A DNA stretch of 64,000 nucleotides from Actinomycetes bacterium. GTDB taxonomy: Bacteria > Actinomycetota > Acidimicrobiia > Acidimicrobiales > JAJYXR01. Numbering within the stretch: the stretch's first letter is position 1; each line of letters starts with the position of its first letter. A model generated the notes under the pieces. The model saw nothing but the letters and a program-made list of their open reading frames with translations. It ran no database searches and was not told the DNA's origin. The stretch covers positions 3,986 through 67,985 of the forward strand of contig JAJYXW010000153.1 in the NCBI GenBank assembly GCA_021801525.1, read 5' to 3'. The position numbers and the translations under genes were made by a program. Positions 21,967 through 64,000 of this stretch are shown in pieces.

Positions 21967-22159
21967 GGGTTCGCCTCGGTCGGTACCGGCTCGAGCTGTG
22001 GTCGAGGGTGAGGTGCTCTATGCGCAAAGTCCCCGTGCGCGCTGTGATGTGCATCGCACTAGGTGTCGCCTCACCGAGCCCGATCATGGGGTGGGAGGCA
22101 GTACATAGGTGATCGGGCCTGACCCGCGGGGAGAGCGTCGGCTGGGACGAGGAGAATCG

Positions 22160-31031: not shown

Positions 31032-31126
31032 GGCGTCCCTCCCACGCTAGGGTCGCGCCTTCCTCGACGAGGTGGAGAGAGATCAGGTGAACCAGTGTTA
31101 CCCATGGTGCGAAAGGGGGTAAGCCG

Positions 31127-40600: not shown

Positions 40601-41262
40601 AGCTTCCCAAGCACCAGCTCCTTGCGTCGGAGAAGGAGATGCTTGGCCTCTACGTGAGCGACCACCCGCTGAAGGGGATCGAGGCGGCGCTGGACCGCCT
40701 GGTGGAGATGTCGATTGCCGACGTGAAGGAGGCCGACCAGAGGGACGAGGGGGGAACGCCCGTTGCTCCCGACGGCCCGCGTGAGGGAAGGGTTGTCACC
40801 ATTGGCGGTGTGATAACCGGGTTGACACGCCGCTACACGAAGCGTGGCGAGCTGATGGCGACCTTCGTGCTCGAGGATCTGCGCGCCTCGATCGAGGTCT
40901 TCGTGTTCCCCAAGGTGATGCAGGAGGTCGGCTCGATCCTCGAAGACGACGTCGTGGTAGTGCTGAGGGGTCGAATAGACGCCCGCGACGAGCAGGTGAA
41001 GATCGTCTGCATGGATGTATCACGCCCGCAGCTCCAGGTCGCAGAGCACTCCGAGCTTCGCGTGAGGCTCCCGCTGGGCAAGCTGACGGATGCGGTGGTG
41101 GACGAGCTCAAGCAGCTCTTCGTCGAGCATCCGGGGAACGAGCCGGTGCTGCTGCACGTAGGCGACACCACGCTGCGGCTGCCGGACGTCTTCAGGGTGG
41201 ACAGCCGCCGCGGCCTGGTCGGCGAGCTGCGGGCGCTTCTCGGAGCAAATGCCATCGCCTAG
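37657..41262 (+). CDS. dnaE: DNA polymerase III subunit alpha
   Basis: PHP domain HLHTHTEYSMLDG, the polymerase core (PDIDMDF), and an OB fold near the C-terminus. GTG start after GGAGGAG. Confidence 0.97.
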   Translation: MPDRGSFAHLHTHTEYSMLDGAARVGDLVAAAKADGQPALGITDHGNMYGVLDFYQACREQGLVPVIGTEAYMAAESRAERPVRRGRLDDTGGDTGGGEKLYYHLTLLAESNEGYRNLIKLSSAAYLEGYYYKPRVDWELLERYHRGLVVTTGCLGGVVLQALLAGDEERATRLAARLQDIFGRESTFVELQDHGLPEQRRTNPALVALAARIGAPLLATNDSHYTHRSDSVAHDALLCVQTGATIDDPKRFKFDSEEHYLKSAAEMRTLFAELPEACDNTLLVAERAQVELQLGLDALPEFPLPEGVPGTGYAERSEAYLRELTMDGAARRYGWPLPAPVAERLDYELRVISEMGFASYFLVVWDLIAYARRKGIRVGPGRGSAAGCCVAYCLGIVDLDPIRYDLLFERFLNPGRKQMPDIDMDFDERFRSDMIAYAAERYGSDHVAQIVTFSTIKARAAVRDAARVLGLPYSVGDRIAKAMPPLVMGRDTPLRACMEQVEGHEDGYVAAVGLREMYDTDPDAKRVLDVAKGLEGLRRQDGIHAAAVVITKEPLTEYLPVQRKPEAGGDPADAPVVTQYEMHGVEALGLLKMDFLGLRNLSVIERALDLIEATGGDRPDIDAIPLDDEETFAMLRRGDSIGVFQLEGGPMRSLMRSLAPTCFDDVAALVALYRPGPMAANMHRDYADRKNGRQAVSYLHPDMEPILADTYGLMIYQESVMRVAQRFAGYTLEEADNLRKACGKKIRSLLAAERTKFVAGCAKEGYGEELGTKLFDIIEPFADYAFNKSHSYGYGLVAYQTAWLKAHFPVEYLAALLTSVKDDKDKTAVYLGECRALGIEVMVPDVNTSTAGFMPVELDGGRRGIVFGLAAVRNVGESLVERIVAERTSGGPFADFYDFARRVDPVVLNKRSVESLVKAGAFDSMGHTRQGLCMVFEEIVDRSLARRREEAAGISTLFSLLEDESSPGTSFDDTRVPIPDTELPKHQLLASEKEMLGLYVSDHPLKGIEAALDRLVEMSIADVKEADQRDEGGTPVAPDGPREGRVVTIGGVITGLTRRYTKRGELMATFVLEDLRASIEVFVFPKVMQEVGSILEDDVVVVLRGRIDARDEQVKIVCMDVSRPQLQVAEHSELRVRLPLGKLTDAVVDELKQLFVEHPGNEPVLLHVGDTTLRLPDVFRVDSRRGLVGELRALLGANAIA

Positions 41263-42216: not shown

Positions 42217-42978
42217 TCAGGGTCGGGGAAGCAGCGCCGACACCGTCTTGTAGCAGTAGCCCCCCCGCGACCTGCTCACGGCCGCGACGAGGTAGCGGGG
42301 TCGGAAGCCGAGTGCTTCCGCAAGTGCGTTTCCGGCCAGGCGGGACCGGCGCGAAGCGTCGAGGATGCGACAGGCGTGGGAGTCTTCTACCGGGAGCCAG
42401 TTGTCCGAGCGAGACCAGCCGAAGCGGGCCCATACGGCGCCGTCGCCCCGGCGTCGGAAGAGGACCGGACCGGCAGTCGGGGCGACCAGGGCCAGGGAAG
42501 GCTGCATTCCTCGGAACTCCCAATACGGAGCCGAGTTGCCCGGGAACCCGAGCAGATCTCCTCCGCCCGGGGAGACGATCTTGTCGATCGCTCGGCGCGC
42601 CTTGCGGCCTCGGAAGGCTCCTATGACGACGGGCTCGGCCTCTACGGTTATGGCTTCCGGTTGTGCCAAGTCGTCCTGCTCGGGGTCGACCGCCGGCCTG
42701 GCCTCTATCACGTCGAACGCCGAGGCGGAGAGGCCCGCGAAGAGAGATCCATCAGGAGCGCTGAGGCGTATCCTGCGCAAGACGCCCGTGTCCAGGTCGA
42801 CTCCTGCGTAGTCGTCTGGCCCTGCGGCCAGCACGAGCAAGCGCACGGTCCCGGGCTGGGCCTCGCTTCTCATGACCCGCCGAACCTGGCGGCGTGCGTC
42901 GCGCTTGGAGATCGGCGAGGCAGCAGGCGCGCCAGCAGGCGCGCTCGTCTCGGTGCTCACGGACTCGCTCATGGCCAC
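42217..42978 (-). CDS. Hypothetical protein
   Basis: 253-aa ORF with coding-like composition. Its start overlaps the stop of the upstream thioredoxin-domain gene by 10 nt, which suggests an operon. Confidence 0.55.
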
Positions 42979-45080
42979 GGATCAATGATGGCAGAGTCGC
43001 CGCCCCCGGTGGGTGGATGCAAGGCCGGTCTCTCCGTATTGCGAGCGTGCGAGCGGGCAGCAGCAGCGCTCTCCTCGCTCAGAGCCCCGAGAAGCTCCTC
43101 CACCGTTGCCGACGGAGCGCGGCATGTCATGTGCCGGCAGACGTAGGCATAACCCTCCTCACGCCCGTCGAAGAGAGGCCAAGCGGCGGGATCTCCCCAA
43201 GCCATAACTGCCGCCGGCTCGAAGCGAGGACGCAGGGCGTCCAAGAGGTCGGGACGCCTTCCGGCCACCACGACCTCCACCAGATCGTCGGCGAGCACCG
43301 CTGCGGGCAGCACCCCGGCGACCGGCAGGGGATTGCCGGGCGTGAGCGCCAGCGCGGCGTGGATGAGCTCCTCGGCGGCATCCGTCATCCTCTGGTCGCA
43401 CGAGAGAGCTCCGAGGCGCACAAGGGCGCAGGCCGCCACCGAGGTAGCCGAAGGGGTTGCGCCGTCGTGCGCGTCCGCCGGTCGCGCAAAGAGCGCTTCG
43501 GCATCGTTGCCGGTCATGTGGAGCACGGAGCCCGGCTCGTAGAAGAGGCGCAGGAGCTCTCGTGCCGCGCTGCGGGCTTCCTCGGCGAAGTGGGCCTTTC
43601 CGGTCAGCTCGGCCAGGCGGGTGAAGGCGTCGACGAGCCAGGCGTAGTCGGCGGCGCAGGCGAGAGGGCCGGGCACGCCGTCGCACCAGGAGCGGAGCCA
43701 CCTGCCGTCAGTGGGCCTGCGCAGATCGCGCAAGAGCATGTCAGCGATCGCGATCGCGCGGCTCTCCCAGGTGGGATTGGCTGTGGCCCAGGCCGCCTCC
43801 GCCAGGGCGGAGCAGAACATTGCGTTCCACTCCGTCACGACCTTGTTGTCACGGGCCGGACGGGTGCGCTGTGCCCGCGCCCTCGCGAGGTGCACCCTCG
43901 CCTGCTCGACAGCTTCCGGCCGCTCGATGGGGGCTCCCGGAGGCCGGCGGAGGACGTACCTGCTCCCCTCGAAGTTCGGCGGGCCTCCGAGCCCGTACCA
44001 CTCGATCGCCGCCCTCGCGAGGTCCGGAGGGAGGAGCTGCTCGAGCTCCGAGCGCTCCCAGAGGTAGAAGCGACCTTCCTCCCCCTCGCTGTCGGCGTCC
44101 TCGGAGGACGCGAGCCCGCCCCCGTCGAGCGCGAGGTCCTGGAGCACGTAGGCCGCGGTCTCCTCGACCACCTGGAGCCAGCGTCGCTCGCCTGTGGACT
44201 GCCAGGCGTGGAGGTAGCAGCGCAGGAGGCCGGCCTGGTCGTAGAGCATCTTCTCGAAGTGGGGAACGCTCCATGTAGCGTCGGTCGAGTAGCGGGCGAA
44301 GCCGCCGCCGAGGTGGTCGTAGATGCCGCCGGCGGCCATCGCGGCGAGAGTGCGCGAAGCCATGTCGAGCGCCCGCTTCCCGCCCGAGAGCCTGTGGTGG
44401 ATCAGGCAGATCTCCACCAGCTGGGGGTTGGGGAACTTCGGTGCCGGCGAGAACCCCGCATCGACTTCGTCGAAGCGCCGGGACAGCTCACCTACGGCTC
44501 GGTGCAGGAGCTCGTGTCCCCCGGGAGAGGTGCCACTGTAGGGAGAACGCGCCCCCTGTCGCGGCCCGGTTCGACCGGGGGAGCCGGCAGCCTCGATCGC
44601 CTCGGCCAACGCACCGGCCTGGCGCTCCAGCTCCTCGCGCCGGTCTCGCCATGCCTCGTGCACTGCCCGAAGCAGCCGGCCGAACCCAGGGAGCCCGTGG
44701 CGGTCCTCCGGGGGGAAGTACGTGCCGCCGAAGAACGGGCGGGTATCGGGGGTGAGGAAGACGGTCATGGGCCACCCCCCGCGACCGGCCATGGCCTGCA
44801 CCGCGTCCATGTATATCGAGTCGATGTCAGGTCGCTCCTCGCGATCCACCTTCACCGAGACGAAGTGCTCGTTCAGATACGCGGCGATGTCGGTGTCCTC
44901 GAAGGACTCGTGAGCCATGACGTGGCACCAGTGGCACGACGCATACCCGATGGAGAGGAAAATAGGCAGGTCGAGCTCCGAGGCTCGAGCGAGCGCCTCG
45001 GGGCCCCAGGGGTACCAGTCGACCGGGTTGGCGGCGTGCTGGCGGAGGTACGGGCTCGGTTCCGAAGCTAGGCGGTTCAC
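42969..45080 (-). CDS. Thioredoxin domain-containing protein (DUF255/YyaL-like with a six-hairpin glycosidase-like domain)
   Basis: [25 protein letters not shown]...[16 protein letters not shown]-terminal signature. Confidence 0.85.
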
Positions 45081-45124
45081 GGGAAAGATGCTACGGCGGG
45101 GAGCATGCCGGTAGGGTTGGCACG

Positions 45125-45889
45125 GTGGAACTGCGGCTCGACGGCAAGGTGGCGCTCGTCACGGGCGGATCGAAGGGGATCGGGCGGGCAATAGCTGCTC
45201 GTTTCGCCGGAGCGGGGGCAAGGGTGATGATCTCCTCGCGCAAGGCGGACGCTCTGGCGGAGGCGGCCGACGAGATCTCCGCGCTCGGGGGCGAGGTGGC
45301 CTGGCACCCGGCCAACGCGGGGGACCCGATCGGCGCGCAAAGCTGCGTAGCGGCCACGATGGATCGCTTCGGGGGCCTCGACATCCTCGTGAACAACGCC
45401 GCGACCAATCCCTACTTCGGGCGGATGATCGACATCGACGAGAGCAGGGTTGCCAAGACCGTCCAGGTGAACCAGCAGGCGATCCTCGTGTGGACCCAGC
45501 TCGCCTGGCGGGCGGCAATGGAGCGCTCCGGCGGGTCGGTGCTGAACATCGCCTCCGTGGGGGGCATGTCGGTCGAACCGGGCATCGGCTGGTACAACGT
45601 CACCAAGGCAGCGGTCATCCACATAACCCGCCAGCTCGCCTACGAGCTCGGCCCGCAGGTGCGGGTGAACGCGCTCGCGCCGGGCCTCGTGCGCACCGAC
45701 TTCGCGAGGGCGCTGTGGGAGCCGGCAGAGGAGATGGTGGCCAAGCGCCTCCCTCTCAGGCGAATAGGCGAGCCCGAGGACATAGCCGGGGCCGCGCTCT
45801 TCTTGTCTTCCGACGCGGCGGCATGGATTACCGGCCACGTGCTCGTGGTGGACGGCGGAGCCATGGCGATGCCGAGCGGCGGCATCTGA
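45125..45889 (+). CDS. SDR family oxidoreductase
   Basis: [32 protein letters not shown] and a PGLVRT-type motif. Confidence 0.88.
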
Positions 45890-51353: not shown

Positions 51354-51545
51354 AGCAGCGGCCCGGTAGCCGGCGAGGTTGGAAGTGGGCACGACGCGGG
51401 TAGGCTTGGGCTTCACATTGCGTTCGCGCTCGTTCGCCGAGCGGATCGACGGCTGTCGGCCCCAGAGGGCATTTGCGGGTGCTGGCGGTTGGTGAAGCGG
51501 GAGGAGGAGCCTTTAGTGGCTCTGGCTGCTGGTGGTGGTCCAGGG

Positions 51546-52943
51546 ATGTGGCCGGGGGCGTGGCCGGGTGGCCCGCCTAGGCTCTCGCGCCGGTCGCTCC
51601 TCCAAGCTGGCGCTGTCGCTGGCGGGGGGCTTGCCCTGGGTGCTTGCAGCTCGGGTCCGAGCGGGCGAACCGGGCTGGCGAAGCCGGCGGCACGGGCCAG
51701 GAACGTTCTGCCAGCGGGGACGCTGCCCCATCCGCACCTCCCCGAGGGTACTGACACGATCCCGGAGATCGACCACATCATGGTGGTCATGCTCGAGAAC
51801 CACTCCTTCGACAACATCCTCGGAATGCTCGGGCGAGGCGACGGCTTCACGCTCGGCTCGAACGGTGCGCCTACGGCTACCAATCCGAACGGCCGGGGCC
51901 AGCTCGTCCGGGCGTTCCACATGCCCACCCCCTGCCAGCTCCACGGCAAACCCTCCCAGTCGTGGAACGCGAGCCATGTCCAGTACGACCACGGGACCAA
52001 CGAAGGCTTCGTGGTCTCCAAGAGCGGGCCCGTCGCCATGGGCTACTGGACGCCACCCGACATGCCCTTCACCAACGGGCTCGCCAAGGTCTTCCCAATA
52101 GGGGACCGCTACTTCTGCTCAGTGCTCGGCCAGACCTTCCCGAACCGCAGGTACCTGATAGCGGGCACCTCGATCGGCATGGTCGACGACACCACACCGT
52201 CCGGGCTCCCACCCGCCGGGACGATCTTCGATTTGTTGAACCGCCACGGGATCCCTTGGCGCGACTACTACTCGAGCCTGCCCACGGCAGGCGTGTTCCT
52301 CCCGCTGCTCGGGCGCAAGGACATTGCGCCGAACCTGGTGCACATCAACCAGCTCTACGCGGACGCGGCGAGCGGGAACTTGCCGGCCTTCGCGATCGTC
52401 GACCCGAACTTCGGGACCGAGTCCGAGGAGGACCCCCAGGATATCCAATACGGCGATGTCTTCCTCGCCAAGGTGATGGGTGCTTTGATGTCCGGCCCCG
52501 CGTGGCCGAGCACGCTCGTCGTATGGAATTACGACGAGCACGGTGGTTATTACGATCACGTCCCGCCGCCGGCAGCGCCGGCTCCAGACGGCATCCCGCC
52601 TGCCATCAAGGTGCCGCCCGACCAGCCGGGCGGGTTCGACCGCTATGGGTTCAGGGTGCCCTTCGGGGTCGTGTCCCCGTACGCGAGGAAGGGCTACGTC
52701 TCCCACGTGGTCCACGACCACACCTCGGTGCTCAAACTGGTCGAGACGAAGTGGAACCTGCCCGCTCTCACTCGCCGCGACGCGAACGCCTCGGACTTGC
52801 TCGACAGCATCGACCTCGCCTCCCCGCCCGCCTTCTTGCACCCACCGACATTGCCTGCCCCAGCCAACCCTGCGCTCGAGGCGTCGTGCGAGCAGGCAGG
52901 GCCGGGGCTCATCCCGCCGCCGGCTGCAGTGGTGAGGGCCTGA
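51546..52943 (+). CDS. Phosphoesterase family protein (PF04185-type; phospholipase C/acid phosphatase AcpA-like), Tat signal
   Basis: LSRRSLLQAGAVAGGGLALGAC signal and IDHIMVVMLENHSFDNILG core. GTG at 51489 is an alternative start. Confidence 0.82.
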   Translation: MWPGAWPGGPPRLSRRSLLQAGAVAGGGLALGACSSGPSGRTGLAKPAARARNVLPAGTLPHPHLPEGTDTIPEIDHIMVVMLENHSFDNILGMLGRGDGFTLGSNGAPTATNPNGRGQLVRAFHMPTPCQLHGKPSQSWNASHVQYDHGTNEGFVVSKSGPVAMGYWTPPDMPFTNGLAKVFPIGDRYFCSVLGQTFPNRRYLIAGTSIGMVDDTTPSGLPPAGTIFDLLNRHGIPWRDYYSSLPTAGVFLPLLGRKDIAPNLVHINQLYADAASGNLPAFAIVDPNFGTESEEDPQDIQYGDVFLAKVMGALMSGPAWPSTLVVWNYDEHGGYYDHVPPPAAPAPDGIPPAIKVPPDQPGGFDRYGFRVPFGVVSPYARKGYVSHVVHDHTSVLKLVETKWNLPALTRRDANASDLLDSIDLASPPAFLHPPTLPAPANPALEASCEQAGPGLIPPPAAVVRA

Positions 52944-52975: not shown

Positions 52976-53169
52976 CTTTGGACCCGTGGCCGTGCTTTCC
53001 TGCATCCTTGCACGCGGTCATATCAGGACGTAGAGTGGTGAGGACCACAGCTGATGCTGAGAGAAACGCCAGTTGTGGTACTGGTGGGACCATTCCAAGG
53101 CAGCGGCCCCGCGTAGAAGTACTGCAACGGGAGCATCGGCACGGCAGGAAGTGAAGGGGGGAGCGGGTC

Positions 53170-54624
53170 ATGGGATCCAACTACCAGGTAACCACCGGCG
53201 GGTCGGGATCGCGAAGCAAGCCTGGGCGCCTTCTAGGTGGGCACCTTCCCGAGCGGCGGCTGTCCAGGCGGCAGATCCTCCAGGGTGCCATGGTCGGTGG
53301 AGCGGGAGTTGCCCTTGCAGGGTGCGGGTCCTGGCCGTTCGGTGGGAGCGGGTCGAGCCTCCCAGCGGGGCCGAGGCCGTTCCCGACCAAGGCGGCCGGC
53401 ACCGACATGATCCCGGAGATCGACCACATCGTGGTGGTCATGCTCGAGAACCACTCCTTCGACAACGTCCTCGGGATGCTCGGGCGAGGCGACGGCTTCA
53501 CGCTCGGCTCGAACGGCCAACCGATGGCCACCAACCCCGAGTCGAACGGCGACCTCGTCCACGCCTTCCACACGCCTACACCGTGCCGGGCCTTCTCCGA
53601 GCCGGACCAGACCTGGAACGACAGCCACATGTCGTACTCGAACGGGACCAATCAAGGTTTCGTGCTCGCGAGCGGCCCGTCCGCGATGGCCTACTACGAC
53701 TCTTCCGACATGCCCTTCACCTACGGTCTCGCGGGATCCTTCCCGGTCTCGGACCAGTACTACTCCTCGCTGCTCGGCCAGACCTTCCCCAACCGCCGCT
53801 ACCTCATCTCGGGCACGTCGCTCGGGATGATCAACGACCTGCCCTCCTTCAGCGACGTGGTGGCGACGGTCGCCAACAGGCCCCCGAACGGCACGATATT
53901 CGACATGCTGAACTCCGTCGGGGTGTCGTGGAAGAACTACAACTACGGCATCTCGACGCTTATGCTCTACCCGTACCTGCTAACCGAACCCGCGAACTTC
54001 GGGAAGATGGTGGGGATCAACCAGTTCTACTCGGACGCGGCGAGCGGCGCCCTGCCGGCGTTCTCGCTCGTGGACCCCGACCTCGTAAACTTCGTCGGCA
54101 ACTCCGGCGGCGAGGGCGACGACATCCAACTGGCCGACAATTTCCTCGCGAGCATCGTCAACGCTCTTGTGAAGGGGCCGAAGTGGTCGAACACTCTCCT
54201 TGTCTGGAACTTCGACGAAGCCGGCGGGTACTACGACCACGTCCCGCCCCCGAGCGCCCCGGTCCCCGACGGCGTGGCGCCCGAGCTCACCTCCTCGGAC
54301 GAGCCGGGCAGCTTCGACCGCTACGGGTTCAGGGTGCCCTGCGGGCTCGTGTGCCCCTACGCGAGGCCCGGTTATGTCTCGCACGTGGTGGCGGATCACA
54401 CCTCGGTGTTGAAGCTGGTGGAGACCAAGTGGAATCTGCCGGCAATGACCAAGCGCGACGCTGCAGCCTCCGACCTACTTGACATGGTCGACTTCTCGTC
54501 CAAGCCCGCATTCCTCACGCCTCCGCGGCTTCCGGCGCCGGCAAACCCGAGCTCGCTGACGGTGGCAAGCTGCGAGATGAGCTCGGCGCAGAACCCTCCC
54601 GCAGGTTACGTCACCGCCGGCTGA
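53170..54624 (+). CDS. Phosphoesterase family protein (paralog of 51546..52943), Tat/lipoprotein-type signal
   Basis: LSRRQILQGAMVGGAGVALAGCG signal and IDHIVVVMLENHSFDNVLG core. Same length and colinear with the upstream paralog. Confidence 0.85.
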   Translation: MGSNYQVTTGGSGSRSKPGRLLGGHLPERRLSRRQILQGAMVGGAGVALAGCGSWPFGGSGSSLPAGPRPFPTKAAGTDMIPEIDHIVVVMLENHSFDNVLGMLGRGDGFTLGSNGQPMATNPESNGDLVHAFHTPTPCRAFSEPDQTWNDSHMSYSNGTNQGFVLASGPSAMAYYDSSDMPFTYGLAGSFPVSDQYYSSLLGQTFPNRRYLISGTSLGMINDLPSFSDVVATVANRPPNGTIFDMLNSVGVSWKNYNYGISTLMLYPYLLTEPANFGKMVGINQFYSDAASGALPAFSLVDPDLVNFVGNSGGEGDDIQLADNFLASIVNALVKGPKWSNTLLVWNFDEAGGYYDHVPPPSAPVPDGVAPELTSSDEPGSFDRYGFRVPCGLVCPYARPGYVSHVVADHTSVLKLVETKWNLPAMTKRDAAASDLLDMVDFSSKPAFLTPPRLPAPANPSSLTVASCEMSSAQNPPAGYVTAG

Positions 54625-54781: not shown

Positions 54782-55606
54782 TCAGGGCCGTCCCGTTCCC
54801 CAGCCGAAGTGGTCGACGGGTCCGTGGCCGGCCCCGAGAGTCCACGTAGCAGCGCCGCCGATGGCCCGGGTCACGTACTCTTTGGCCCGGGTGGCCGCCT
54901 CGGGCGCGCCGGCGCCGCGGGCGAGCCACGCGGCTATTGCAGCCGAGAATGTGCAGCCTGTCCCGTGGTCGTTGCGCGTGGCGACCCGGGCGGCCGGAAG
55001 GAGCGTGACCTCGCCCCCGGGGCCACCGGCCAGGACCACGTCGGGGGAGATCGCGCCTCGAAGGTGCCCGCCCTTGACCACGACGAGCTCCGCGCCCATC
55101 TCCGCGATCCTTCGGGCTGCAGCCTCCATGGCCCCGGTGGAGTCGATATCCGCCAGGTCCATCGAGGCGAGGAGGGCGGCTTCGAAGAGGTTGGGCGTCA
55201 GGACACGGGCACGGGGGACGAGCAGATCCCTGTAGGCATCCAGCCCTCCCTCGTCGAGGAGTGGCTTCCCGCTGGAGGACACGAGCACGGGGTCGACCAC
55301 TAGGTTTGGGATGACACCCTCGGCGGCGAGCTGCGCGACGACGCGCACGTTCGCGGCAGTGGCGAGCATCCCGGTCTTCGTGGCCCTGACCGGCATATCG
55401 TCGAGGACGGTGCGGACCTGGAGCTCCACGAAAGCGGGGTCCACGCTCAGCGTGGCACGTACCTCGGTGGTGCTCTGCGCCGTTATGGCGGTGAGAGCCG
55501 AGGTGCCGTGCACTGCGTGGGCTGCGAAGGTGAGCAGGTCCGCCTGGATCCCTGCGCCTCCCCCAGAGTCCGATCCGGCAATAGTGAGCGCAACGGGAGG
55601 GTCCAC
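54782..55606 (-). CDS. thiD: Hydroxymethylpyrimidine/phosphomethylpyrimidine kinase
   Basis: [22 protein letters not shown] and [12 protein letters not shown] motifs. Confidence 0.92.
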
Positions 55607-55696
55607 GCCGCCGAGCGTAGGGCGCGGCGCGAACCGGCGCAGCGCCCGAGAGCGCCGGCCGTGCCGGCGAGCGCGCCGGACGTGCCGGCGAGGTTC

Positions 55697-56810
<1,114 letters not shown>

Positions 56811-56815
56811 CCCAG

Positions 56816-58057
56816 TCAGTGGGCGCCGACGCCGAAGCGCTCGGCTCCGAAGGGGAGGATCGCGGCCGGGGGTTCCGAGCCTGTGAGCCATGCTGCCACC
56901 GCAACCGCACTTATCGGGGTCAAGAGTATGCCGTTTCGGTAGTGGCCGGTCGCGACTATGAGGCCGTCTACGCCCGAGCCGACTCCGTAAGCGGCGAGAA
57001 CGGGCGCGTTGTCGGGCGTGGCAGGGCGCAGGCCTGCACTCGCATCCACCAGCACCATCTCGCTCACTCCTGGTACGAGCCGGTGTGCCCGGCGGAGCAG
57101 GTCGTGGAGGCCCCCCGCGGTGACGCTCGTGTCGAAGCCCAGTTCTTCCGATGTCGCCCCGAGCAGCACCGACCCGTCGGAGCGCGGCACGAGATAGATC
57201 GGAGCACCCATCACGATTCCGCGCACGGTCCTCCCGATGAGCCGCCAAGTCACGCCCTGGGGCGAGGCTCCCGAAGTCGGGGGAGGGGCCAGACGGATGA
57301 TCTGGCCCTTCACTGGCCTGAGAGGGGGAAGCGCACCCTCGGGCACTCCTGCGATGCCGCCTGACCAGCACCCTGCGGCGATGACAACGCGGGTCGCCGC
57401 GAGCTCGCCGCCGCTCGCGAGGCGCACCCCGCTGACGCTGCCGGCCGAGGTGAGAAGCTCCACCGCCTTGTCGGTCACGAAGCGGGTGCCTTCGTGGTGG
57501 CAGGCTGCCTCGAGAGCGGCGACGAGGGCACGGGTGCGTACTTGGTGGTCGTGGCGTGCCCAGAGAGCGGCTCGCACGCCGGGGGCGAGATTCCCCTCGA
57601 GCTCGCGGGCCTTGGACCCGACCAGCCAGTCGACGTCGAGTGCCAGCGAGCGCTGCAGCTCGTAGAGCTCGTGGGCTGCCTCCCTGTCGTCTTCATCGAA
57701 CGCCGCGAGCAGGGTGCCGCAGCGGAGGTATCCGACATCCATGCCGGTTGCCTCCTCGAGCTCGGCGGCGAAGGGCGGCCATTGGCCGGCAGCCGCCAGC
57801 CCCAGAGCGAGAAGCGCCTCCTCGCCGTAGTGGGCTTCGGTCACCGGAGCGAGCATCCCCGCTGCCATCCATGACGCGCCGCGCCCTGGAGCGGGGTCCA
57901 CCAGTGCCACCGACATGCCGGCGCGGCTGGCCTTCCACGCGGAGGCGAGCCCTATGGCCCCTCCGCCGATCACGACCACGTCCGAGGCTGGCGGGCTCGC
58001 TGGTGTACCGGGCGCGCGGGAGGCTGCGGCATCGGGGGAAGTCAAGGCATGCTCCAC
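56816..58057 (-). CDS. thiO: Glycine oxidase ThiO (FAD-dependent)
   Basis: DVVVIGGGAIGLASAW dinucleotide-binding motif and position upstream of thiS-thiG. GTG at 58057 within track ORF 56816..58609. Confidence 0.85.
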   Translation of the reverse strand: MEHALTSPDAAASRAPGTPASPPASDVVVIGGGAIGLASAWKASRAGMSVALVDPAPGRGASWMAAGMLAPVTEAHYGEEALLALGLAAAGQWPPFAAELEEATGMDVGYLRCGTLLAAFDEDDREAAHELYELQRSLALDVDWLVGSKARELEGNLAPGVRAALWARHDHQVRTRALVAALEAACHHEGTRFVTDKAVELLTSAGSVSGVRLASGGELAATRVVIAAGCWSGGIAGVPEGALPPLRPVKGQIIRLAPPPTSGASPQGVTWRLIGRTVRGIVMGAPIYLVPRSDGSVLLGATSEELGFDTSVTAGGLHDLLRRAHRLVPGVSEMVLVDASAGLRPATPDNAPVLAAYGVGSGVDGLIVATGHYRNGILLTPISAVAVAAWLTGSEPPAAILPFGAERFGVGAH

Positions 58058-58207
58058 GCCAACCGATCGTATGCCTGCGCTGGCCGCTCCGCTCGGGCAG
58101 CACCGCGAGGGGCCTGTTGACCACCAGGCGTGGGAGGCATAGCCTGGCACCGAGCGTTCCCTGGCAAGCGGGGGCGTGCCAACCCAGGGAGGGGCCAGGT
58201 AGAAGGT

Positions 58208-61200
58208 TTGGGACCTAAGTTCTTCAGGCGCGCCAGGGCGAGGTGGGCGCTGTCCAAGTCGGGGAAGTCGGCGATGGCGACCGTGGCGGCCGTGGCGCTC
58301 GCTACGGGGGCAGGCGGCATGCTCTTGCCCGCCACTGCTCCTTACGCCGCCGGAGCTCCGGCGAGCACGCCTTCGGGCGGGCAGGCGGTGAGCTCGCAGG
58401 TGGGGATCGAGCGCGCTCTCGCGACGGCTGCCGGGAGGCAGCCCGCAGCAGTTGGCAACCCGGGCCCGGCATTGCCTGGGGCGAGGATCACCGGGCGCCT
58501 GGCGGCTTCCCGGGAGATCCGCTTCGACGTGGTGCTGCGTCCACGCGACCCGGCTTCGCTCAGCGCATTCCTCCGTTCCCTGTACACGCCAGGCTCGCCT
58601 ACGTACCACAAGTTCCTCGCGCGCGGGCAGTTCGGGTCCAGGTTCGGCGCCACTCCAGGCACGATCGCCGGCGTGCGCACGGAGCTCGCGGCTCTGGGCC
58701 TCGACCCGGGACGCCCCAGCGCTGACGGGCTCGTGCTGCCCGTGAGGTCGAGGGCGCTTGCCGTGGAACGTGCGCTAGGTGTCACCGAGGCCAGGTTCGT
58801 GCTCCCGAGCGGGCGGGTCGCGTTCTCGAACTTGCAGGCCCCGAAGCTTCCGTCCGCGATCGCACGATACGTGAGCGCGGTCGTGGGCCTCTCGACAATC
58901 GCGCGCGCCCGGCCGCTCGCAGCGAGCGCAACGTCACCTGCATGCCTCTCCCCATTCGGACCAGCCGGCGGCGTCGCCGGTATCGTCGAGAGTGGCTTCG
59001 GCAGGCTTGCCGCCTCGGGTGTCCCGGCCGCCTCGGGTGTCCCGGGCGTCCCGGCTGGATCTGCGGCCTCGCGCTGCGCGTCGCGTGCCGAGCTGCCGCG
59101 TGCCGGACTGCTGGCCGGTGGGTTCCAGCGCGCCGGGCTGCATGCGGCCTGGCCCATGGGGTCAGCTCGCCCGAGCCTGTCGCGCCTCGGTGGCCTGCAT
59201 GTGGCAAGCACAGGTGCGAGCAGATCAGTGCGCCCGGCTGGCAGCAGCATCGGCAGCACAGGCACAGGCGGCAGCGCGCGAAATGCGTTGCTCGCACCCC
59301 GCAGCACCTCGGTGGCTAGCGCGTGCGCGGCGGCGGCCGATGCCGCGAGCGCGAACGGCGCGTATACGGCCAGCCAGCTCGCGACCGCATACGGATTCGC
59401 GTCGGGCGCCTACGTGAGCGGGCACCTCGGCGCCGGCGAGACGATAGGGATCTTGACGCTCGGTCCGTACTCGACCTCCGACATATCAGCGTTCGAGAGC
59501 TGCTACGGGATCTCGACCAAGGTGACGCCGGTCGCGGTCGGGGGCGGGACGGTGTCGGGGTTCGGCAACAGCGTGGAGTCGACGCTCGACATCGAGGTCG
59601 CAGCCGGGCTCGCTCCCCAGGCGAGCATCATCCCCTACGAAGCGCCTCCGACGGGAGCCGGCCCCTTCGAGGACTATATGGCTATGGCCAACGCGGATGC
59701 CGCCCAGGTCGTGTCGGCCAGCTATGGGCTCTGCGAGGCGTACGTCGGCAGCGCGGCGGCCCAGGCGGAGAACACGATCTTCGAGCAGATGGCGGCCCAG
59801 GGACAGACAATGGTCGCTGCTGCGGGCGACAACGGTTCCGAGGACTGCTACTCGTCCGGCGGCGGCCCGGTTGGCCCGGGATCGGGGCTCTCAGCGGCCG
59901 CCTGCCCCGCCTCGGCCTCCACCTGCCTGGCGGTGGGCATGGACGTGAACGACGGAGAGGGCGTGGTCGTCCCGGTGCCAGGAGGCGTACCTGGAAAGGC
60001 GGTAGCTGTACCGGGCACCGAGACGCTCTACGGGATCGCCTGCGACTCGGACATCACCTGCTATGCGGTAGGCACCACCGCGAACGGCGTCGGAGTGGTG
60101 GTCCCGATCTCCCAAGGCGCGCCTGGCGCGCCGTTCCTGGTGCCGACAGCGGCATCCCTCATGGGCATCTCCTGCGTGCCCGGCACGACTTCGTGCCTGG
60201 CCGCGGGCACCAACGAGTACGGCGTCGGAGTGGTGGTCCCGATTTTCGGCGGCGTGGCGTCGAGTGCCCAGACGGCGGTCGGCACTTCGGTCCTCCTCGG
60301 GGTCGCCTGCCCCTCGACTGCTGCGTGCGCTGCCGTGGGGATCGACTCGAGCTCGAGCAATCCTGAAGGGGCAGCGGTGGTGGTGACGTCCGGAGGAGTC
60401 GGGAGTGCCGTCGACCTCCCCTCGACGGCTTCGATGGACGGTATATATTGCACGGCTGCTGACACCTGCGTAGCCGTGGGCTCGAGCTCCAGCGGAGACG
60501 GGGTGGTGGCATCGATCACCTCTGGCGTGGCGGGCAAGCCACAGATGCTCAGCTCGTCGGGGCCGCTGTCCGCTGTGGCGTGCAGCTCGTCGAGCGCGTG
60601 CTACGCAGTGGGGACGGGCACCTCGCTGTCGGGCAGCGTGGTGGCGATCACGAGTGGTACGGCCGGAACCCCGGGCGAGGTCCTCGGAACAAGCATGCTC
60701 GGCGGGGTGGCCTGCCCGAGCGGGTCGGCGTGCTTCGCGGTGGGCTCGGATATGGCCGGCAACGGGGCTGTGGCGACGATTACGCCTGGTCCGGCCTTTG
60801 GCGTGCTGACGGCTGGGCAGGCGGCGCCGGCCTCGATCTCCCTCGACTCGCTTTCGTGCGCCTCCCCCACCTCCTGCCTCGCGGTCGGGAGCGACCAGAA
60901 CGGCCTCGGAGTGGTGATGCCTATCACCAACGGAACCCCCGGAGCTCCCGTGGAGGTGGCGGGAGCGGCCGCCCTCTTCGGGGTGTCGTGTGTCTCCTCG
61001 GGCACCTGCGAGGCCGTGGGCATGGGGTTCTCGGCCAGCTCGGGCCTCGCTGGGGTCGCGCTCGAGGTGAACGGCAGCCAGCTCGGCCAGGTCGAGACGG
61101 TGAGCAGCTCCGTAGCCCTCGAAGCTGTCTCGTGCTACGGGGCGGGGGACTGCGAAGCTGCCGGCGTCGGGGGGATCGCGTCTGGGCCCGCATCGGCGGG

Positions 61201-64000
61201 TAACGGAGTGCTGGTGCCGATCGCGAACGGCGCTCCGGGCAGCGCGACGAGCATCCCCGGGGTGCTCTTCGCCGGCGTCGCGTGCAGCTCCTCGTCGTCG
61301 TGCGCCGCCGTCGGGGCGGAGCCCCTGCCGAGTGGAGGGAGCGAGGGCGCAGTGGTAAGCGTCTCGGGCGGCACGGCGGGATCCCCCGAGCTGGTCAGCG
61401 GGGCGGCCGCCCTGAACTCGGTCGCGTGCTCTTCGGCAACTTCCTGCGAGGCTGCCGGCTACGTCTCGGGTGCGTCGGGCAGCGCCGAGGGCGTGCTGGT
61501 CGCGCTGTCGAGCGGCACGCCGGGGAGCCCGCTCGACGTGGCGGAAACCTCGGCGCTCCTCGGCATCTCGTGCGCGTCGTCCACCTGCGAGGCCTCCGGT
61601 GTCGATCTCACCGGGCCGACCAGCAGCAACGGGGTGGTGGTGGCGATTAGCGGGGGCTTACCCGCCAGCCCGCAGGGCGTGCCGGCAAGCTCGGGACTTG
61701 ACGCCATATCCTGCACGTCCTCGACTCTCTGCGAGGCGGTGGGGAACGACCCGGCAGGCAATCCCCAGGTGCTCCAGGTGAGCGGGGGAGCGCCGGGAAG
61801 CCCGGTGCTCGCCTGGTTCGGACCGGGTCTCTACGGAGTCTCGTGCTCCGCCTCGGCCTGCGAGGCGGCCGGTTCGTCGGGGCAGAGCGCCAGCCTCTCG
61901 GCACTTACGAGCGGGTCCGCAGGAGCACCCGTGGTGGTGCCTGGCGCCATCGCCCTTGTCGCTGTGTCCTGCCCGGCGACGGGGAGCTGCGAGGCCGTTG
62001 GCCTCAGCGCGGGCGGCGAAGGGGTCGTCCTAGGGGTGTCAGGCGGCACGGCAGGTAGCCCCGTCGCAGTGCCGGGCACCTCGGAGCTGACGTCGGTGTC
62101 GTGTGTTTCGGTCGGCAACTGCGTGGCCGTCGGCTCCAGCGCGGGCGGCGAAGGGGTCGTCGTCGCCATTGGCAATGGCACGCCCGGCGCTGCATCGGCA
62201 GTTGCAGGCACGAGCGGTCTCACGGGCGTGTCCTGCGCGTCCGCGAGTACGTGCGAGGCCGTCGGGTACGAGATCGCTTCGGGGGGTTCGCCCGGAGGCG
62301 TGGCACTCACCGTCACCGGCGGTACTCCCGGAAGCGTCGTCGCGCTGAGTGGCACGAGCGTACTGAACGGCATCTCGTGCGCGTCGGCCAGCACCTGCGA
62401 GGCGGTCGGGGGCGAGATCACCTCCTCGGGGTCGGGCTCGTCTGCGAGTGCTCCGGCAGAGGGCGTCGTGGTTAGCCTGGCGAGTGGCTCCCCCGGCAGC
62501 GCTCAGGCAGTCGCAGGAGCGTTCTCCCTCTACGCGGTCTCGTGCGCGACTTCGGGCAGCTGCGAAGCCACCGGGTCGAGCGAGTCAGGAGCGTACAGCG
62601 TGGTCGTAGGCGTGAGCGGCGGGGTACCGGGGAGTGTGATCGGGACCTGGGCAGCCGTGCTCCAGGGGCTCTCGTGTGCCTCCACCACCACCTGCGTGCT
62701 CGTGGGATCGGACCAGGCAGGTCAGGGAGTGGCCCTGGCCACGTCGAGCGGGGTCCCGCTGGACACCCTCTACTCGGCGTCCATGCCCATAGGACTTGCC
62801 GTGGACGACCCGGCATCCCAGCCTTTCGTGACGGCGGTCGGGGGCACGAGTCTCACCTCGCTCGGCCCACCCCCGGTCCAGTCCGCCTGGAACAACGGCG
62901 TGGCATCGGGCGGTGGAGCCGGAGGTGGCGGGATCTCTTCCATCTGGCAGATGCCGTCCTGGCAGAAGGGGACCGGCGTGGTCAACCAGTACTCGAGCGG
63001 GTCCCCCTGCGGGGCCCCCTCGGGCAGCTATTGCCGCGAGGTCCCCGATGTGTCCGCTTCGGCGGACCCGAACCACGGAGACGTCATCTACTACCAGGGA
63101 GCGTGGCAGGTCATCGGAGGCACCAGCGAAGCGGCCCCCCTCTGGGCGGCCCTGGTCGCCGTGGCCAACGAGGGATGCTCGAGCTCGACGGGCTTCGCGA
63201 ACCCGGCTCTCTATGCTCACGCGAGCGACCTCCAAGGCGTCACCATGGGCAACAACGACTACACCGGCACCAACGGTGGGCTCTACCCGGCGACCGCCGG
63301 ATACAACCTGGCCACCGGTCTCGGCACGCCCACTGCTGCGATCTTCGCCCCGGGAGCCCTTTGCCCGGCTCCGCTGGCGGAGCCGTCTGCCAGCGGGCTC
63401 ACGGTGGTGCCGGCGGACAACACGACCGGGGCGACGACCACTTACCAGGTGAGCTTCACCACTTCCTCCAAGGGGGCTCTGGCGGCTCCTGCTTCCATCT
63501 ACCTGACCATGACCGCTGGTACGACCATGCCGGCCTCCTCCGCAGACTACGCCGTCAGCGACGTCGCAGGGGGCTCCGACAAGGTGTCCTCGGTGACCGT
63601 CTTCGCTGCAGGAGGGTCTGCTACGCCCAACGAGGTCGCCATCTCCCTCTCTGCCTCGAGCATCACCGCGAACGACGGCGTCGCCATCGCGATCTCGGGA
63701 GTCGCGAACCCTTCGCTCGCCTCGCCCGATGACACGGCGACCGCAAGCACCTCCGCCGATACGGTCGTGCTGACATCGGCGCCCTACGCTGTCGTCGCGC
63801 CGCCGGTGGTCACGGGTACCTACGTCCCCATGTCTCCGGCGCGCATAGTAGACACCCGCTGCTCGGAGTCCCCGCTGCCGGCCTCGCTCAGCGCCTCGTA
63901 CTGCGCGGCGCTTCCCACGGCCAACGCCTCGCTGTCCTCGCCGGCGGGCGCGAAGAAGATCCACGTGCAGGTGACCGGCGTCGGCGGCGTGCCGGACACC
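58208..64000 (+). CDS. Giant exported S53 (sedolisin/kumamolisin-type) peptidase, 3'-truncated by the window end, with a large intradomain repeat insertion
   Basis: The frame in phase with 58226 has no stop from 58208 or earlier to 64000. It is absent from the ORF track because there is no stop codon in the window. Motifs in order: signal-like KSGKSAMATVAAVALATGAGGMLLPATAPYAAG; pro-kumamolisin activation domain (FDVVLRPRDPASLSAFLRSLYTPGSPTYHKFL...); catalytic VESTLDIEVAAG (Glu 59576, Asp 59588), SASYGLCE, AAAGDNGSEDC (Asp 59828), VDDPASQPFVTAVGGTSL (62801-), GGTSEAAPLWAA (Ser 63125). Start is either TTG at 58208 or ATG at 58274. Confidence 0.85.
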   Translation, partial: MGPKFFRRARARWALSKSGKSAMATVAAVALATGAGGMLLPATAPYAAGAPASTPSGGQAVSSQVGIERALATAAGRQPAAVGNPGPALPGARITGRLAASREIRFDVVLRPRDPASLSAFLRSLYTPGSPTYHKFLARGQFGSRFGATPGTIAGVRTELAALGLDPGRPSADGLVLPVRSRALAVERALGVTEARFVLPSGRVAFSNLQAPKLPSAIARYVSAVVGLSTIARARPLAASATSPACLSPFGPAGGVAGIVESGFGRLAASGVPAASGVPGVPAGSAASRCASRAELPRAGLLAGGFQRAGLHAAWPMGSARPSLSRLGGLHVASTGASRSVRPAGSSIGSTGTGGSARNALLAPRSTSVASACAAAADAASANGAYTASQLATAYGFASGAYVSGHLGAGETIGILTLGPYSTSDISAFESCYGISTKVTPVAVGGGTVSGFGNSVESTLDIEVAAGLAPQASIIPYEAPPTGAGPFEDYMAMANADAAQVVSASYGLCEAYVGSAAAQAENTIFEQMAAQGQTMVAAAGDNGSEDCYSSGGGPVGPGSGLSAAACPASASTCLAVGMDVNDGEGVVVPVPGGVPGKAVAVPGTETLYGIACDSDITCYAVGTTANGVGVVVPISQGAPGAPFLVPTAASLMGISCVPGTTSCLAAGTNEYGVGVVVPIFGGVASSAQTAVGTSVLLGVACPSTAACAAVGIDSSSSNPEGAAVVVTSGGVGSAVDLPSTASMDGIYCTAADTCVAVGSSSSGDGVVASITSGVAGKPQMLSSSGPLSAVACSSSSACYAVGTGTSLSGSVVAITSGTAGTPGEVLGTSMLGGVACPSGSACFAVGSDMAGNGAVATITPGPAFGVLTAGQAAPASISLDSLSCASPTSCLAVGSDQNGLGVVMPITNGTPGAPVEVAGAAALFGVSCVSSGTCEAVGMGFSASSGLAGVALEVNGSQLGQVETVSSSVALEAVSCYGAGDCEAAGVGGIASGPASAGNGVLVPIANGAPGSATSIPGVLFAGVACSSSSSCAAVGAEPLPSGGSEGAVVSVSGGTAGSPELVSGAAALNSVACSSATSCEAAGYVSGASGSAEGVLVALSSGTPGSPLDVAETSALLGISCASSTCEASGVDLTGPTSSNGVVVAISGGLPASPQGVPASSGLDAISCTSSTLCEAVGNDPAGNPQVLQVSGGAPGSPVLAWFGPGLYGVSCSASACEAAGSSGQSASLSALTSGSAGAPVVVPGAIALVAVSCPATGSCEAVGLSAGGEGVVLGVSGGTAGSPVAVPGTSELTSVSCVSVGNCVAVGSSAGGEGVVVAIGNGTPGAASAVAGTSGLTGVSCASASTCEAVGYEIASGGSPGGVALTVTGGTPGSVVALSGTSVLNGISCASASTCEAVGGEITSSGSGSSASAPAEGVVVSLASGSPGSAQAVAGAFSLYAVSCATSGSCEATGSSESGAYSVVVGVSGGVPGSVIGTWAAVLQGLSCASTTTCVLVGSDQAGQGVALATSSGVPLDTLYSASMPIGLAVDDPASQPFVTAVGGTSLTSLGPPPVQSAWNNGVASGGGAGGGGISSIWQMPSWQKGTGVVNQYSSGSPCGAPSGSYCREVPDVSASADPNHGDVIYYQGAWQVIGGTSEAAPLWAALVAVANEGCSSSTGFANPALYAHASDLQGVTMGNNDYTGTNGGLYPATAGYNLATGLGTPTAAIFAPGALCPAPLAEPSASGLTVVPADNTTGATTTYQVSFTTSSKGALAAPASIYLTMTAGTTMPASSADYAVSDVAGGSDKVSSVTVFAAGGSATPNEVAISLSASSITANDGVAIAISGVANPSLASPDDTATASTSADTVVLTSAPYAVVAPPVVTGTYVPMSPARIVDTRCSESPLPASLSASYCAALPTANASLSSPAGAKKIHVQVTGVGGVPDT
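59880..62790 (+). repeat. Protein-level array of about 21 diverged repeats of about 46 aa (about 138 bp), each with a C-x(5-7)-C-x-A-[VA]-G core
   Basis: Cores read in frame: AACPASASTCLAVG, IACDSDITCYAVG, ISCVPGTTSCLAAG, VACPSTAACAAVG, IYCTAADTCVAVG, VACSSSSACYAVG, VACPSGSACFAVG, LSCASPTSCLAVG, VSCVSSGTCEAVG, VSCYGAGDCEAAG, VACSSSSSCAAVG, VACSSATSCEAAG, ISCASSTCEASG, ISCTSSTLCEAVG, VSCSASACEAAG, VSCPATGSCEAVG, VSCVSVGNCVAVG, VSCASASTCEAVG, ISCASASTCEAVG, VSCATSGSCEATG, LSCASTTTCVLVG. Confidence 0.85.

Follow-up and report, generated by a model that had tools for sequence, protein, structure and literature searches.

A 64,000-nucleotide stretch of DNA from an uncultured Actinomycetes bacterium of the order Acidimicrobiales (assembly GCA_021801525.1, contig JAJYXW010000153.1, positions 3,986 to 67,985 of the forward strand; hereafter the window) ends inside an open reading frame (ORF) of more than 5.7 kb, and this ORF raises the question of whether a protease domain can be interrupted by a segment larger than itself and still make up one enzyme. 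Sedolisins, the peptidases of family S53, are described as compact enzymes consisting of a prodomain and a catalytic domain. A sequence-only reading of the window had proposed that the ORF encodes a sedolisin whose catalytic domain is split by about 990 inserted residues. The follow-up presented here asks whether the gene is real, whether the two halves belong to a single domain, and what the insert may be. The answer that we consider probable is that a gene of the core chromosome encodes a secreted S53 zymogen, that its catalytic domain is opened after the oxyanion Asp, and that the 21 repeats placed there would form propellers acting as an exosite or gate.

The split catalytic domain and its reading frame

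Residues are numbered from the ATG at 58274. In a phmmer comparison with all PDB sequences, only S53 structures were significant. Residues 3-172 of kumamolisin align with aa 361-527 of the ORF and residues 178-359 with aa 1510-1699, the C-terminal half alone scoring 93-97 bits. Between the two blocks, 975 residues stand at the site of the five-residue kumamolisin turn D173-H177. When aa 531-1504 were deleted in silico, the remainder aligned with residues 3-351 of kumamolisin-As in a single stretch (E 6e-44), and the excised domain also matched sedolisin (1e-25) and human TPP1 (4e-20). The single-stretch alignment indicates that the catalytic domain is complete and that the insertion is clean; together with the colinearity of the two halves, it is the basis on which they are predicted to form one domain. 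The earlier proposal of a nested insertion, as opposed to a terminal fusion, is upheld, with a size of ~980 aa at the loop it had named.

The catalytic residues are those expected of the family. Glu435 (59576), Asp439 (59588) and the nucleophile Ser1618 (63125) are the counterparts of E78, D82 and S278 of kumamolisin, while Asp519 (59828), within the motif AAAGDNGS, corresponds to D164, the oxyanion Asp that replaces the Asn of subtilisin. The motif VDDPAS, which opens the C-terminal half, starts at 62801. All of the S53 catalytic residues had been listed as present by the sequence-only reading; residue mapping to kumamolisin confirms them, and the motif coordinates proved exact for 59828, 62801 and 63125, as well as for 59576 and 59588. 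The ORF shares Glu, Asp, oxyanion Asp and Ser with each of the 129 aligned relatives, every nested one included.

Asp524 and Asp1511 flank the insertion point; they correspond to kumamolisin D169 and D179, so that the ORF retains both. In the specificity redesign that produced Kuma010, these are two of the six mutated positions (D169G, D179H) (PMC5935664). The array is taken here to exit the catalytic domain at the rim of the substrate pocket.

Standard family models are of little help with this protein. With the whole ORF as query the prodomain is the sole Pfam match, NCBIfam gives none, and no S53 or S8 model is matched; the insert-free catalytic domain likewise matches no S53 or S8 model of Pfam or NCBIfam, Peptidase_S8 included. 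The two-block hmmscan alignment once suggested as a check on the insertion is uninformative, since no Pfam or NCBIfam model recognises the S53 catalytic part.

As to the reading frame, translation of 58001-64000 gives a single stop, at 58118-58120; from 58121 onwards no further stop interrupts the frame within the window, in agreement with the earlier statement that no stop follows 58208. The first in-frame starts are TTG 58208 and ATG 58274. A gene call from another assembly (P0280) begins with MGPKFF, equivalent to TTG 58208, and protein P0281 begins at the ATG. Either of the two is a likelier start than position 58226, on which the sequence-only reading had anchored the frame. The closed-ORF list for 58.2-64.0 kb contains ten ORFs on the + strand, all in a different phase from 58274, and otherwise only antisense ORFs, so that its members had rightly been described as off-frame or antisense shadows. 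From 58250 to 64000, the protease frame has the highest third-position GC (0.78-0.91). The exception is the linker at 58850-59300, where all three codon positions are at ~0.75; the codons of this Ala-, Gly-, Arg-, Pro- and Ser-rich segment are rich in G+C at positions 1 and 2.

An exhaustive search with aa 500-1699 against 1.84 billion cluster representatives returned P0021, which is 99% identical and whose cluster mates include the full-length P0281 (1,989 aa). P0281 lies on contig DAHZKW010000128.1 of GCA_027410225.1 (locus L005), with which the last 14.6 kb of the window share 98.9% identity up to the window end. Within the ORF the two differ by a single indel, an in-frame copy of an 18-nt repeat in the linker. 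Synonymous and nonsynonymous codon differences from the 99% strain number 10 against 11, too few to interpret. L005 also supplies the missing end of the gene: the ORF had correctly been reported as still open at 64000, and in L005 the stop codon is found 261 nt past that point, followed by gltB. By this comparison the complete window gene would encode ~1,995 aa if translation starts at the ATG and 2,017 aa if it starts at the TTG.

A more distant orthologue, P0171 (2,162 aa; GCA_027339795.1, locus L006), is syntenic and 44% identical over the array. At the level of sequence comparison, misassembly, frameshift and chimera are excluded by the occurrence of the same uninterrupted architecture in P0281/L005, P0021 and P0171/L006.

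The repeat array and its relatives

The insert is an array of 21 tandem units of 42-55 aa each (aa 535-1509, nt 59876-62800). The unit consensus is L-x-G-V-S-C-x-S-x3-C-x-A-V-G-x4-G-x-G-V-V-V-x4-G-x-P-G-S-x3-V, in which two Cys and one Gly are invariant, and the mean pairwise identity of the units is 38%. No tandem repeat was detected within the array at the DNA level; the units are therefore of old origin, and their collapse or expansion during assembly is not to be expected. P0171 also has 21 units, their lengths matching those of the window units one for one and in the same order. The mean unit score between the two arrays is 94 in register vs 62-74 at any shift. From this in-register correspondence it follows that the array predates the lineage split and has been kept intact since.

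Sequence profiles do not place the array in a known fold family. It has no Pfam match even at E <=10 and no NCBIfam match, a profile of the repeat family matches no PDB sequence, and the array matches none of the profiles of the curated propeller families (WD40, Kelch, NHL, BNR/Asp-box, FG-GAP, YWTD, PQQ). Some distant relatives of the repeat give weak matches to PSII_BNR, Sortilin-Vps10 or BNR_2. An AlphaFold2 model of the array, built from a 47-sequence alignment, has a mean predicted local distance difference test score (pLDDT) of 80. DSSP assigns it an all-beta structure of about four strands per unit. Among its low-confidence segments are breaks at model residues 316-326 and 645-688, which fall at r7/r8 and r14/r15, and between these the units r8-r14 mostly score 84-97. 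A second, spliced construct joined the N-terminal half, r1-r7, r15-r21 and the C-terminal half; in it the pLDDT exceeds 90 for most of the 14 units, with r1-r7 above 90 and r15-r21 mostly at 81-97.

When both models were compared with the PDB by Foldseek, multi-propeller proteins came out on top, at probability 1.00 for nearly all of the matches listed. The 21-unit model matched Aip1 (two seven-bladed propellers), LRP2, GH74, DDB1/CPSF160 and tricorn (1K32), and the 14-unit model matched double seven-bladed propellers, Aip1 among them (E 2e-16). Unit counts across 149 repeat-bearing proteins have their maxima at 7 (41 proteins), at 12-14 and at 20-21. Each unit is modelled as a four-stranded blade, and the array is most likely three seven-bladed β-propellers, a ring size that we infer. 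The blades are probably each pinned by a disulfide within a Cys-x4-6-Cys pair.

How common such an architecture may be was judged from the loop gap in the 135 closest proteins having both catalytic halves, this ORF counted. The gap is <=29 aa in 119 and 282-401 aa in 13; the last three are P0023 (661 aa), P0022 (814 aa) and this ORF (975 aa). Inserts of 282-975 residues at the loop are thus found in 16/135. The sequence-only reading had said that it would be refuted if long insertions at this loop were already common in annotated sedolisins. This applies in part, since the ORF turns out not to be unique, yet insert-bearing proteins are a minority and are unannotated in this respect, in that none of the nested relatives looked up has a source-given name reflecting the insert. 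Pfam finds only PF09286 in P0171, P0023, P0024 and P0075, and fn3, TIG or NHL as well in other members.

Three types of propeller-like insert can be told apart at this one loop. The first is the Cys-pair repeat described above, with 7 units in P0024 and P0285, 14 in P0023 and a paralogue at L006, ~17 in P0022 and 21 in P0171. Among the nested S53 proteins only this gene and P0171 have 21 units, and in the majority the insert is a single propeller (282-401 aa). A related Cys-pair repeat with the motif N-G-S-S-W-S (C-x5-C) provides 7 units in P0053, P0160 and P0088. Finally, an NHL/lactonase-type seven-bladed propeller is recognised by Pfam at the same loop in P0108, P0124, P0145 and P0158. In a rough neighbour-joining tree of the concatenated catalytic halves, the NHL-type members fall in a clade of seven with P0167, P0142 and P0106, whose insert type is unidentified, and the Cys-pair members fall in adjacent groups alongside a few uninserted sequences.

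The insertion loop looks like a hot spot for propeller insertion, and the recurrence of three propeller types at a loop flanked by specificity residues suggests that position matters. A further proposal, which we offer only tentatively and would not rely on, is that the hairpin past the oxyanion Asp is a recurrent docking port for propellers ('VVPI' Cys-pair, 'NGSSWS' Cys-pair and NHL/lactonase), that arrays there grew stepwise from 7 to 14 to 21 units, and that in this gene the three propellers would close over the S1 side of the cleft as a chamber or clamp. If true, this would define a new class of extracellular proteases that are self-gated and capture their substrates, and 975 aa within a ~370-aa domain would be an unusually long insert for a compact enzyme domain.

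The repeat itself is not confined to this loop. In P0034, P0064, P0156 and P0255 it lies C-terminal to an uninterrupted S53 domain, and the family as a whole comprises >440 proteins at E <=1e-10, with fusions to CE4 deacetylases, DUF642, RHS, TIG, fn3 and lipases (GDSL lipase). These contexts would fit a general extracellular binding module.

The nested relatives were found by the exhaustive representative search and by an array-alignment search. A word-index homologue search with the whole ORF recovered none of them because low-complexity words filled its candidate list. Genome contigs scanned with the C-terminal 400 aa gave no match; the scan of metagenome contigs gave four S53 relatives (L001-L004), and in L001 and L002 the halves are contiguous, with no insert. 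A search with a 44-column unit profile returned only gene calls of ~90 aa (P0013-P0020) with one or two units, some of them with signal-like N-termini, and these may be fragments or genuine mini-proteins.

The L006 paralogue is a second nested S53 protein of 1,860 aa (L006 997-6579) with 14 units and three C-terminal domains of the RIVDTR type. It lies a few kb upstream of P0171, flanked by a phosphoesterase gene and thiD. The window and L005 both lack a counterpart at that site, and P0023 looks like its orthologue.

Proposed mechanism and alternative explanations

The distribution of basic residues offers a clue to how the enzyme may be activated. The two halves and the array contain 5 Lys+Arg in 1,345 aa (window 59339-63373) and the prodomain and linker 34 in 355 aa (58274-59338). 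The 975-aa array has 2 Lys and 0 Arg, and the 140-aa linker 11 Arg and 0 Lys. In P0171 the mature part differs from the prodomain plus linker in the same way, and nested arrays hold 1-4 Lys+Arg vs 4-27 in free-standing arrays of the same repeat family. In wild-type kumamolisin basic residues are preferred in the S1 pocket (PMC5935664), and the pocket Asp residues of kumamolisin are conserved in the ORF. Taken together, the Lys/Arg composition, the kumamolisin S1 preference and the conserved pocket Asp residues suggest that activation may occur by cuts within the Arg-rich linker and that the mature enzyme, propellers included, may have evolved to resist its own activity.

In the mechanism proposed here, the zymogen would be exported, and its prodomain would assist folding and then inhibit the enzyme. 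Cleavage in the basic linker would yield a mature S53 enzyme of ~1,345 aa (halves plus array, C-terminal domains not counted). The three propellers would remain attached and project from the rim of the substrate pocket. Their function is probably that of an exosite or gate for substrates, in which they would select, hold or restrict polymeric substrates, much as the PA domain nested in S8 subtilases or the propellers of prolyl oligopeptidase and tricorn protease might be compared with them.

Several observations weigh against this reading. Sedolisins have a conserved Ca2+ site (PMC6278154). At the positions of the kumamolisin ligands Asp316 and Asp338, the ORF has Gly1655 (63236-63238) and Asn1678 (63305-63307). 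P0171 has the same Gly/Asn pair, the other Cys-pair nested S53s have lost at least one of the two Asp, and both are kept by most uninserted relatives and by 5/7 members of the NHL-type clade. Loss of these ligands could affect stability or activity. The structure prediction is also mixed. In the spliced AlphaFold2 model, the N-terminal half has a pLDDT of 65-87 and the C-terminal half, at ~29, is left unfolded, probably through misalignment of uninserted homologues by MAFFT in that region. Structure modelling had been put forward earlier as a way to see the two halves reassemble; it gives confident propellers and a moderately confident N-terminal half, and reassembly is not seen in the model. 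With regard to ring size, lags of 7 and 14 units bring no clear rise in unit similarity. The 814-aa insert of P0022, with ~17 units, is not a multiple of seven; either some of its units are degenerate or its rings are of different size. Lastly, the neighbouring genes (thi operon, gltBD) give no functional clue.

Among the alternatives, the one that survives best is that the propellers are an anchoring or adhesion module, directed at the envelope, an exopolymer or a surface, with no direct effect on substrate access or specificity. It is unlikely, but has to be taken seriously. The fusion of the repeat to many unrelated extracellular enzymes and toxins speaks for it, as does its position C-terminal to an intact S53 domain in four relatives, where it could be an autonomous module; yet those four relatives also illustrate that a plain anchor could sit at a terminus, and this protein already has C-terminal domains available for anchoring. 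An anchor would also leave aside the occurrence of three propeller types at one loop flanked by D169/D179 (PMC5935664).

A second alternative holds that the protease domain is dead or only a scaffold, and that the protein is in effect a large β-propeller binding protein. Replacement of both Asp ligands of the Ca2+ site, failure of AlphaFold2 to fold the C-terminal half and lack of a Pfam Peptidase_S8 match even without the insert would all be in keeping with this. The last of these is uninformative, as most close uninserted S53 relatives also lack a match to PF00082. Against this alternative stand the conservation of all four catalytic residues (Glu, Asp, oxyanion Asp and Ser) in the nested relatives without exception, despite their deep divergence, the retained prodomain, the end-to-end alignment of the excised domain with kumamolisin-As, and a Lys/Arg depletion that fits an active protease avoiding self-cleavage. 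A dead protease is accordingly judged very improbable, and the secreted, self-resistant S53 enzyme with propellers as exosite or gate remains the preferred interpretation.

That the ORF is an artefact, whether of misassembly, of a collapsed or expanded repeat, or of a frameshifted pseudogene held open by G+C richness, can be dismissed as next to impossible: the DNA is 70% G+C, long spurious ORFs are common in it (as its many shadow ORFs attest) and the linker has no clear codon-position signal, but the GC signal at the third codon position follows the frame across both insert junctions, the array has no DNA-level tandem repeat to mislead an assembler, the sole indel vs L005 within the ORF is in frame, and the same gene is present in several independent assemblies, with 21 colinear units in a syntenic orthologue.

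Other features, genomic setting and known systems

Coordinates of the ORF features and of the divergent neighbour are collected in Table 1.

Table 1. Features of the nested sedolisin gene and its divergent neighbour, in window coordinates.
Feature	Position	Strand	Residues or basis
FAD (flavin adenine dinucleotide)-dependent oxidase, thiO-like, divergent neighbour	56816..58057	-	Pfam DAO, E 3e-67
Start codon and putative export signal	58208..58360	+	TTG 58208 giving MGPKFFRRARARWALSKSGKS and hydrophobic AMATVAAVALATGAGGMLLPA, or ATG 58274
Pro-kumamolisin activation domain	58478..58894	+	aa 69-207; Pfam PF09286
Arg-rich low-complexity linker, prodomain to catalytic domain	58919..59338	+	aa 216-355
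N-terminal half of S53 catalytic domain	59339..59875	+	aa 356-534; phmmer to kumamolisin
Units r1-r7, putative first seven-bladed β-propeller	59876..60829	+	aa 535-852
Units r8-r14, putative second propeller	60830..61816	+	aa 853-1181
Units r15-r21, putative third propeller	61817..62800	+	aa 1182-1509
C-terminal half of S53 catalytic domain	62801..63373	+	aa 1510-1700; phmmer to kumamolisin
β-rich region past the protease domain	63374..63811	+	aa 1701-1846
Start of C-terminal domain, motif P-A-R-I-V-D-T-R	63812..64000	+	aa 1847 onwards; runs off window

Ahead of the catalytic domain, the export signal and pro-kumamolisin domain anticipated by the sequence-only reading are both in place. The N-terminus appears signal-like as judged by eye, and the TTG start would give it a positively charged n-region. 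The prodomain match covers profile positions 2-141 of 143 (E 1.4e-19, 71 bits). Within the linker, Tandem Repeats Finder detects 2.1 copies of an 18-nt tandem repeat, GCCGCCTCGGGTGTCCCG, at 59009-59045. The window has one additional in-frame copy relative to L005 (AASGVP, aa 246-251), so linker length varies between strains. The linker of P0171 is similar in length and divergent in sequence, with conserved ends. A compensated double frameshift in the linker was considered and rejected, given that the sole indel vs L005 is in frame and that the P0171 linker has a similar length and conserved ends.

Beyond the protease domain, the β-rich region has no Pfam match and no PDB sequence match. It is probably Ig-like and, by inspection, resembles repeated segments of P0001, which NCBI names an Ig-like domain-containing protein. 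The C-terminal domain can be followed to its end in P0281, which terminates in NVVVDVEGYYLSG and a stop, followed by gltB. There it spans aa 1842-1989 (~150 aa), starting with P-A-R-I-V-D-T-R-C and ending with V-D-V-E-G-Y-Y. One to three copies of this RIVDTR domain are present in P0171, the L006 paralogue and P0005, and it too matches neither Pfam nor PDB sequences.

The divergent thiO-like oxidase heads a thiS/thiG/thiD cluster, and the same neighbourhood is found in L005 and L006. In the window the cluster occupies 54782-58057 (-) and comprises the thiO-like DAO oxidase, thiS, a 322-aa ORF in the thiG position and a thiD-like kinase. Around P0171, which occupies the same position in L006, thiO-thiS-thiG-thiD lies divergently upstream and gltBD downstream. 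No thiamine pyrophosphate (TPP) riboswitch is found by Rfam at its gathering threshold at any position of the window. Scanning the window for Rfam families and tRNAs gave no matches, and scans of the divergent intergenic region detected neither a promoter nor a terminator. At 51354-52943 and 53155-54624 lie two tandem paralogues of a phosphoesterase (PF04185), with 74-78% DNA identity across aligned segments of ~380-450 bp. L006 has apparently one phosphoesterase copy, then the extra S53 paralogue.

Farther away, window 10110-45158 is core chromosome with no sign of a mobile element. It includes a division and cell-wall cluster with a penicillin-binding protein transpeptidase, a Mur ligase, a MraY-type transferase and FtsZ (22109-23281), as well as a class I tRNA synthetase of isoleucyl type (27618-31046, -), the DNA polymerase III alpha subunit (37657-41262) and a DUF255 thioredoxin-domain protein (42969-45158, -).

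Full-text literature searches found no paper linking sedolisins with propellers or large insertions. A survey of eukaryotic sedolisins describes cluster-specific inserts of ~25-40 aa where lengths are stated (PMC6278154). The ORF encodes a genuine S53 peptidase with what is most likely a nested triple propeller, an architecture that was not found described and that is not unique, as relatives exist in public databases. Within a small and unnoticed nested lineage, the ORF and P0171 have the largest arrays. The S53 fold evidently accommodates an insert 2.6 times as large as itself, at a loop with kumamolisin specificity residues on either side, and this loop appears to have been used repeatedly in evolution for β-propellers. 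The natural series of 0, 7, 14 and 21 blades may allow the study of how nested binding domains shape protease specificity. It may also point to a port for exosite engineering in kumamolisin-type enzymes, which are under development as gluten-degrading therapeutics. Apart from the protease, the widespread Cys-pair propeller family, with its >440 proteins, has no Pfam model and no solved structure. For annotation, the lesson is that closed-ORF tracks and Pfam-only annotation each miss the nature of this protein.

Kumamolisin and kumamolisin-As (1GT9, 1T1E, 1SIO) are the closest known systems, sharing with the ORF the pro-kumamolisin domain, the Ser-Glu-Asp triad and the oxyanion Asp. The ORF protein differs from them in having 975 residues in place of a five-residue turn, Gly/Asn in place of the Ca2+-site Asp pair, an extra 140-aa linker and C-terminal domains, and a mature part nearly free of Lys and Arg. 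Measured against MEROPS family S53 (clan SB), it has whole-length homology, the triad, the oxyanion Asp and the prodomain, but not an Asp-liganded Ca2+ site, which is an accessory hallmark outside the MEROPS definition. As for the array, the best structural matches to its models are the double or triple seven-bladed propellers of DDB1, CPSF160, Aip1 and Gemin5. These eukaryotic scaffolds of the WD40 type show ~10% identity and lack both a Cys pair and an enzyme domain, so that the likeness is one of structural analogy only.

Two groups of proteases approach the proposed design from different sides. In prolyl oligopeptidase (S9) and tricorn protease, entry to the active site of a serine peptidase is governed by attached β-propellers. 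The catalytic folds of these enzymes are unrelated to that of the ORF, and their propellers are sequential instead of nested in a loop of the catalytic domain. Nesting is found in the subtilases (S8) that carry a protease-associated (PA) domain, such as streptococcal C5a peptidase, tomato SBT3, lactocepin and P57, which share the clan SB fold and likewise have a non-catalytic domain set into the catalytic domain before the nucleophile Ser. Their triad is Asp-His-Ser, and their insert is one alpha/beta PA domain of ~140 aa in place of propellers; the ORF, with its Ser-Glu-Asp triad, has no Pfam match to the PA domain (PF02225). The likeness is one of design only. In Photobacterium P57, the PA domain nested in the S8 catalytic domain was shown to bind the substrate collagen (PMC5177683), the closest precedent for the mechanism proposed here.

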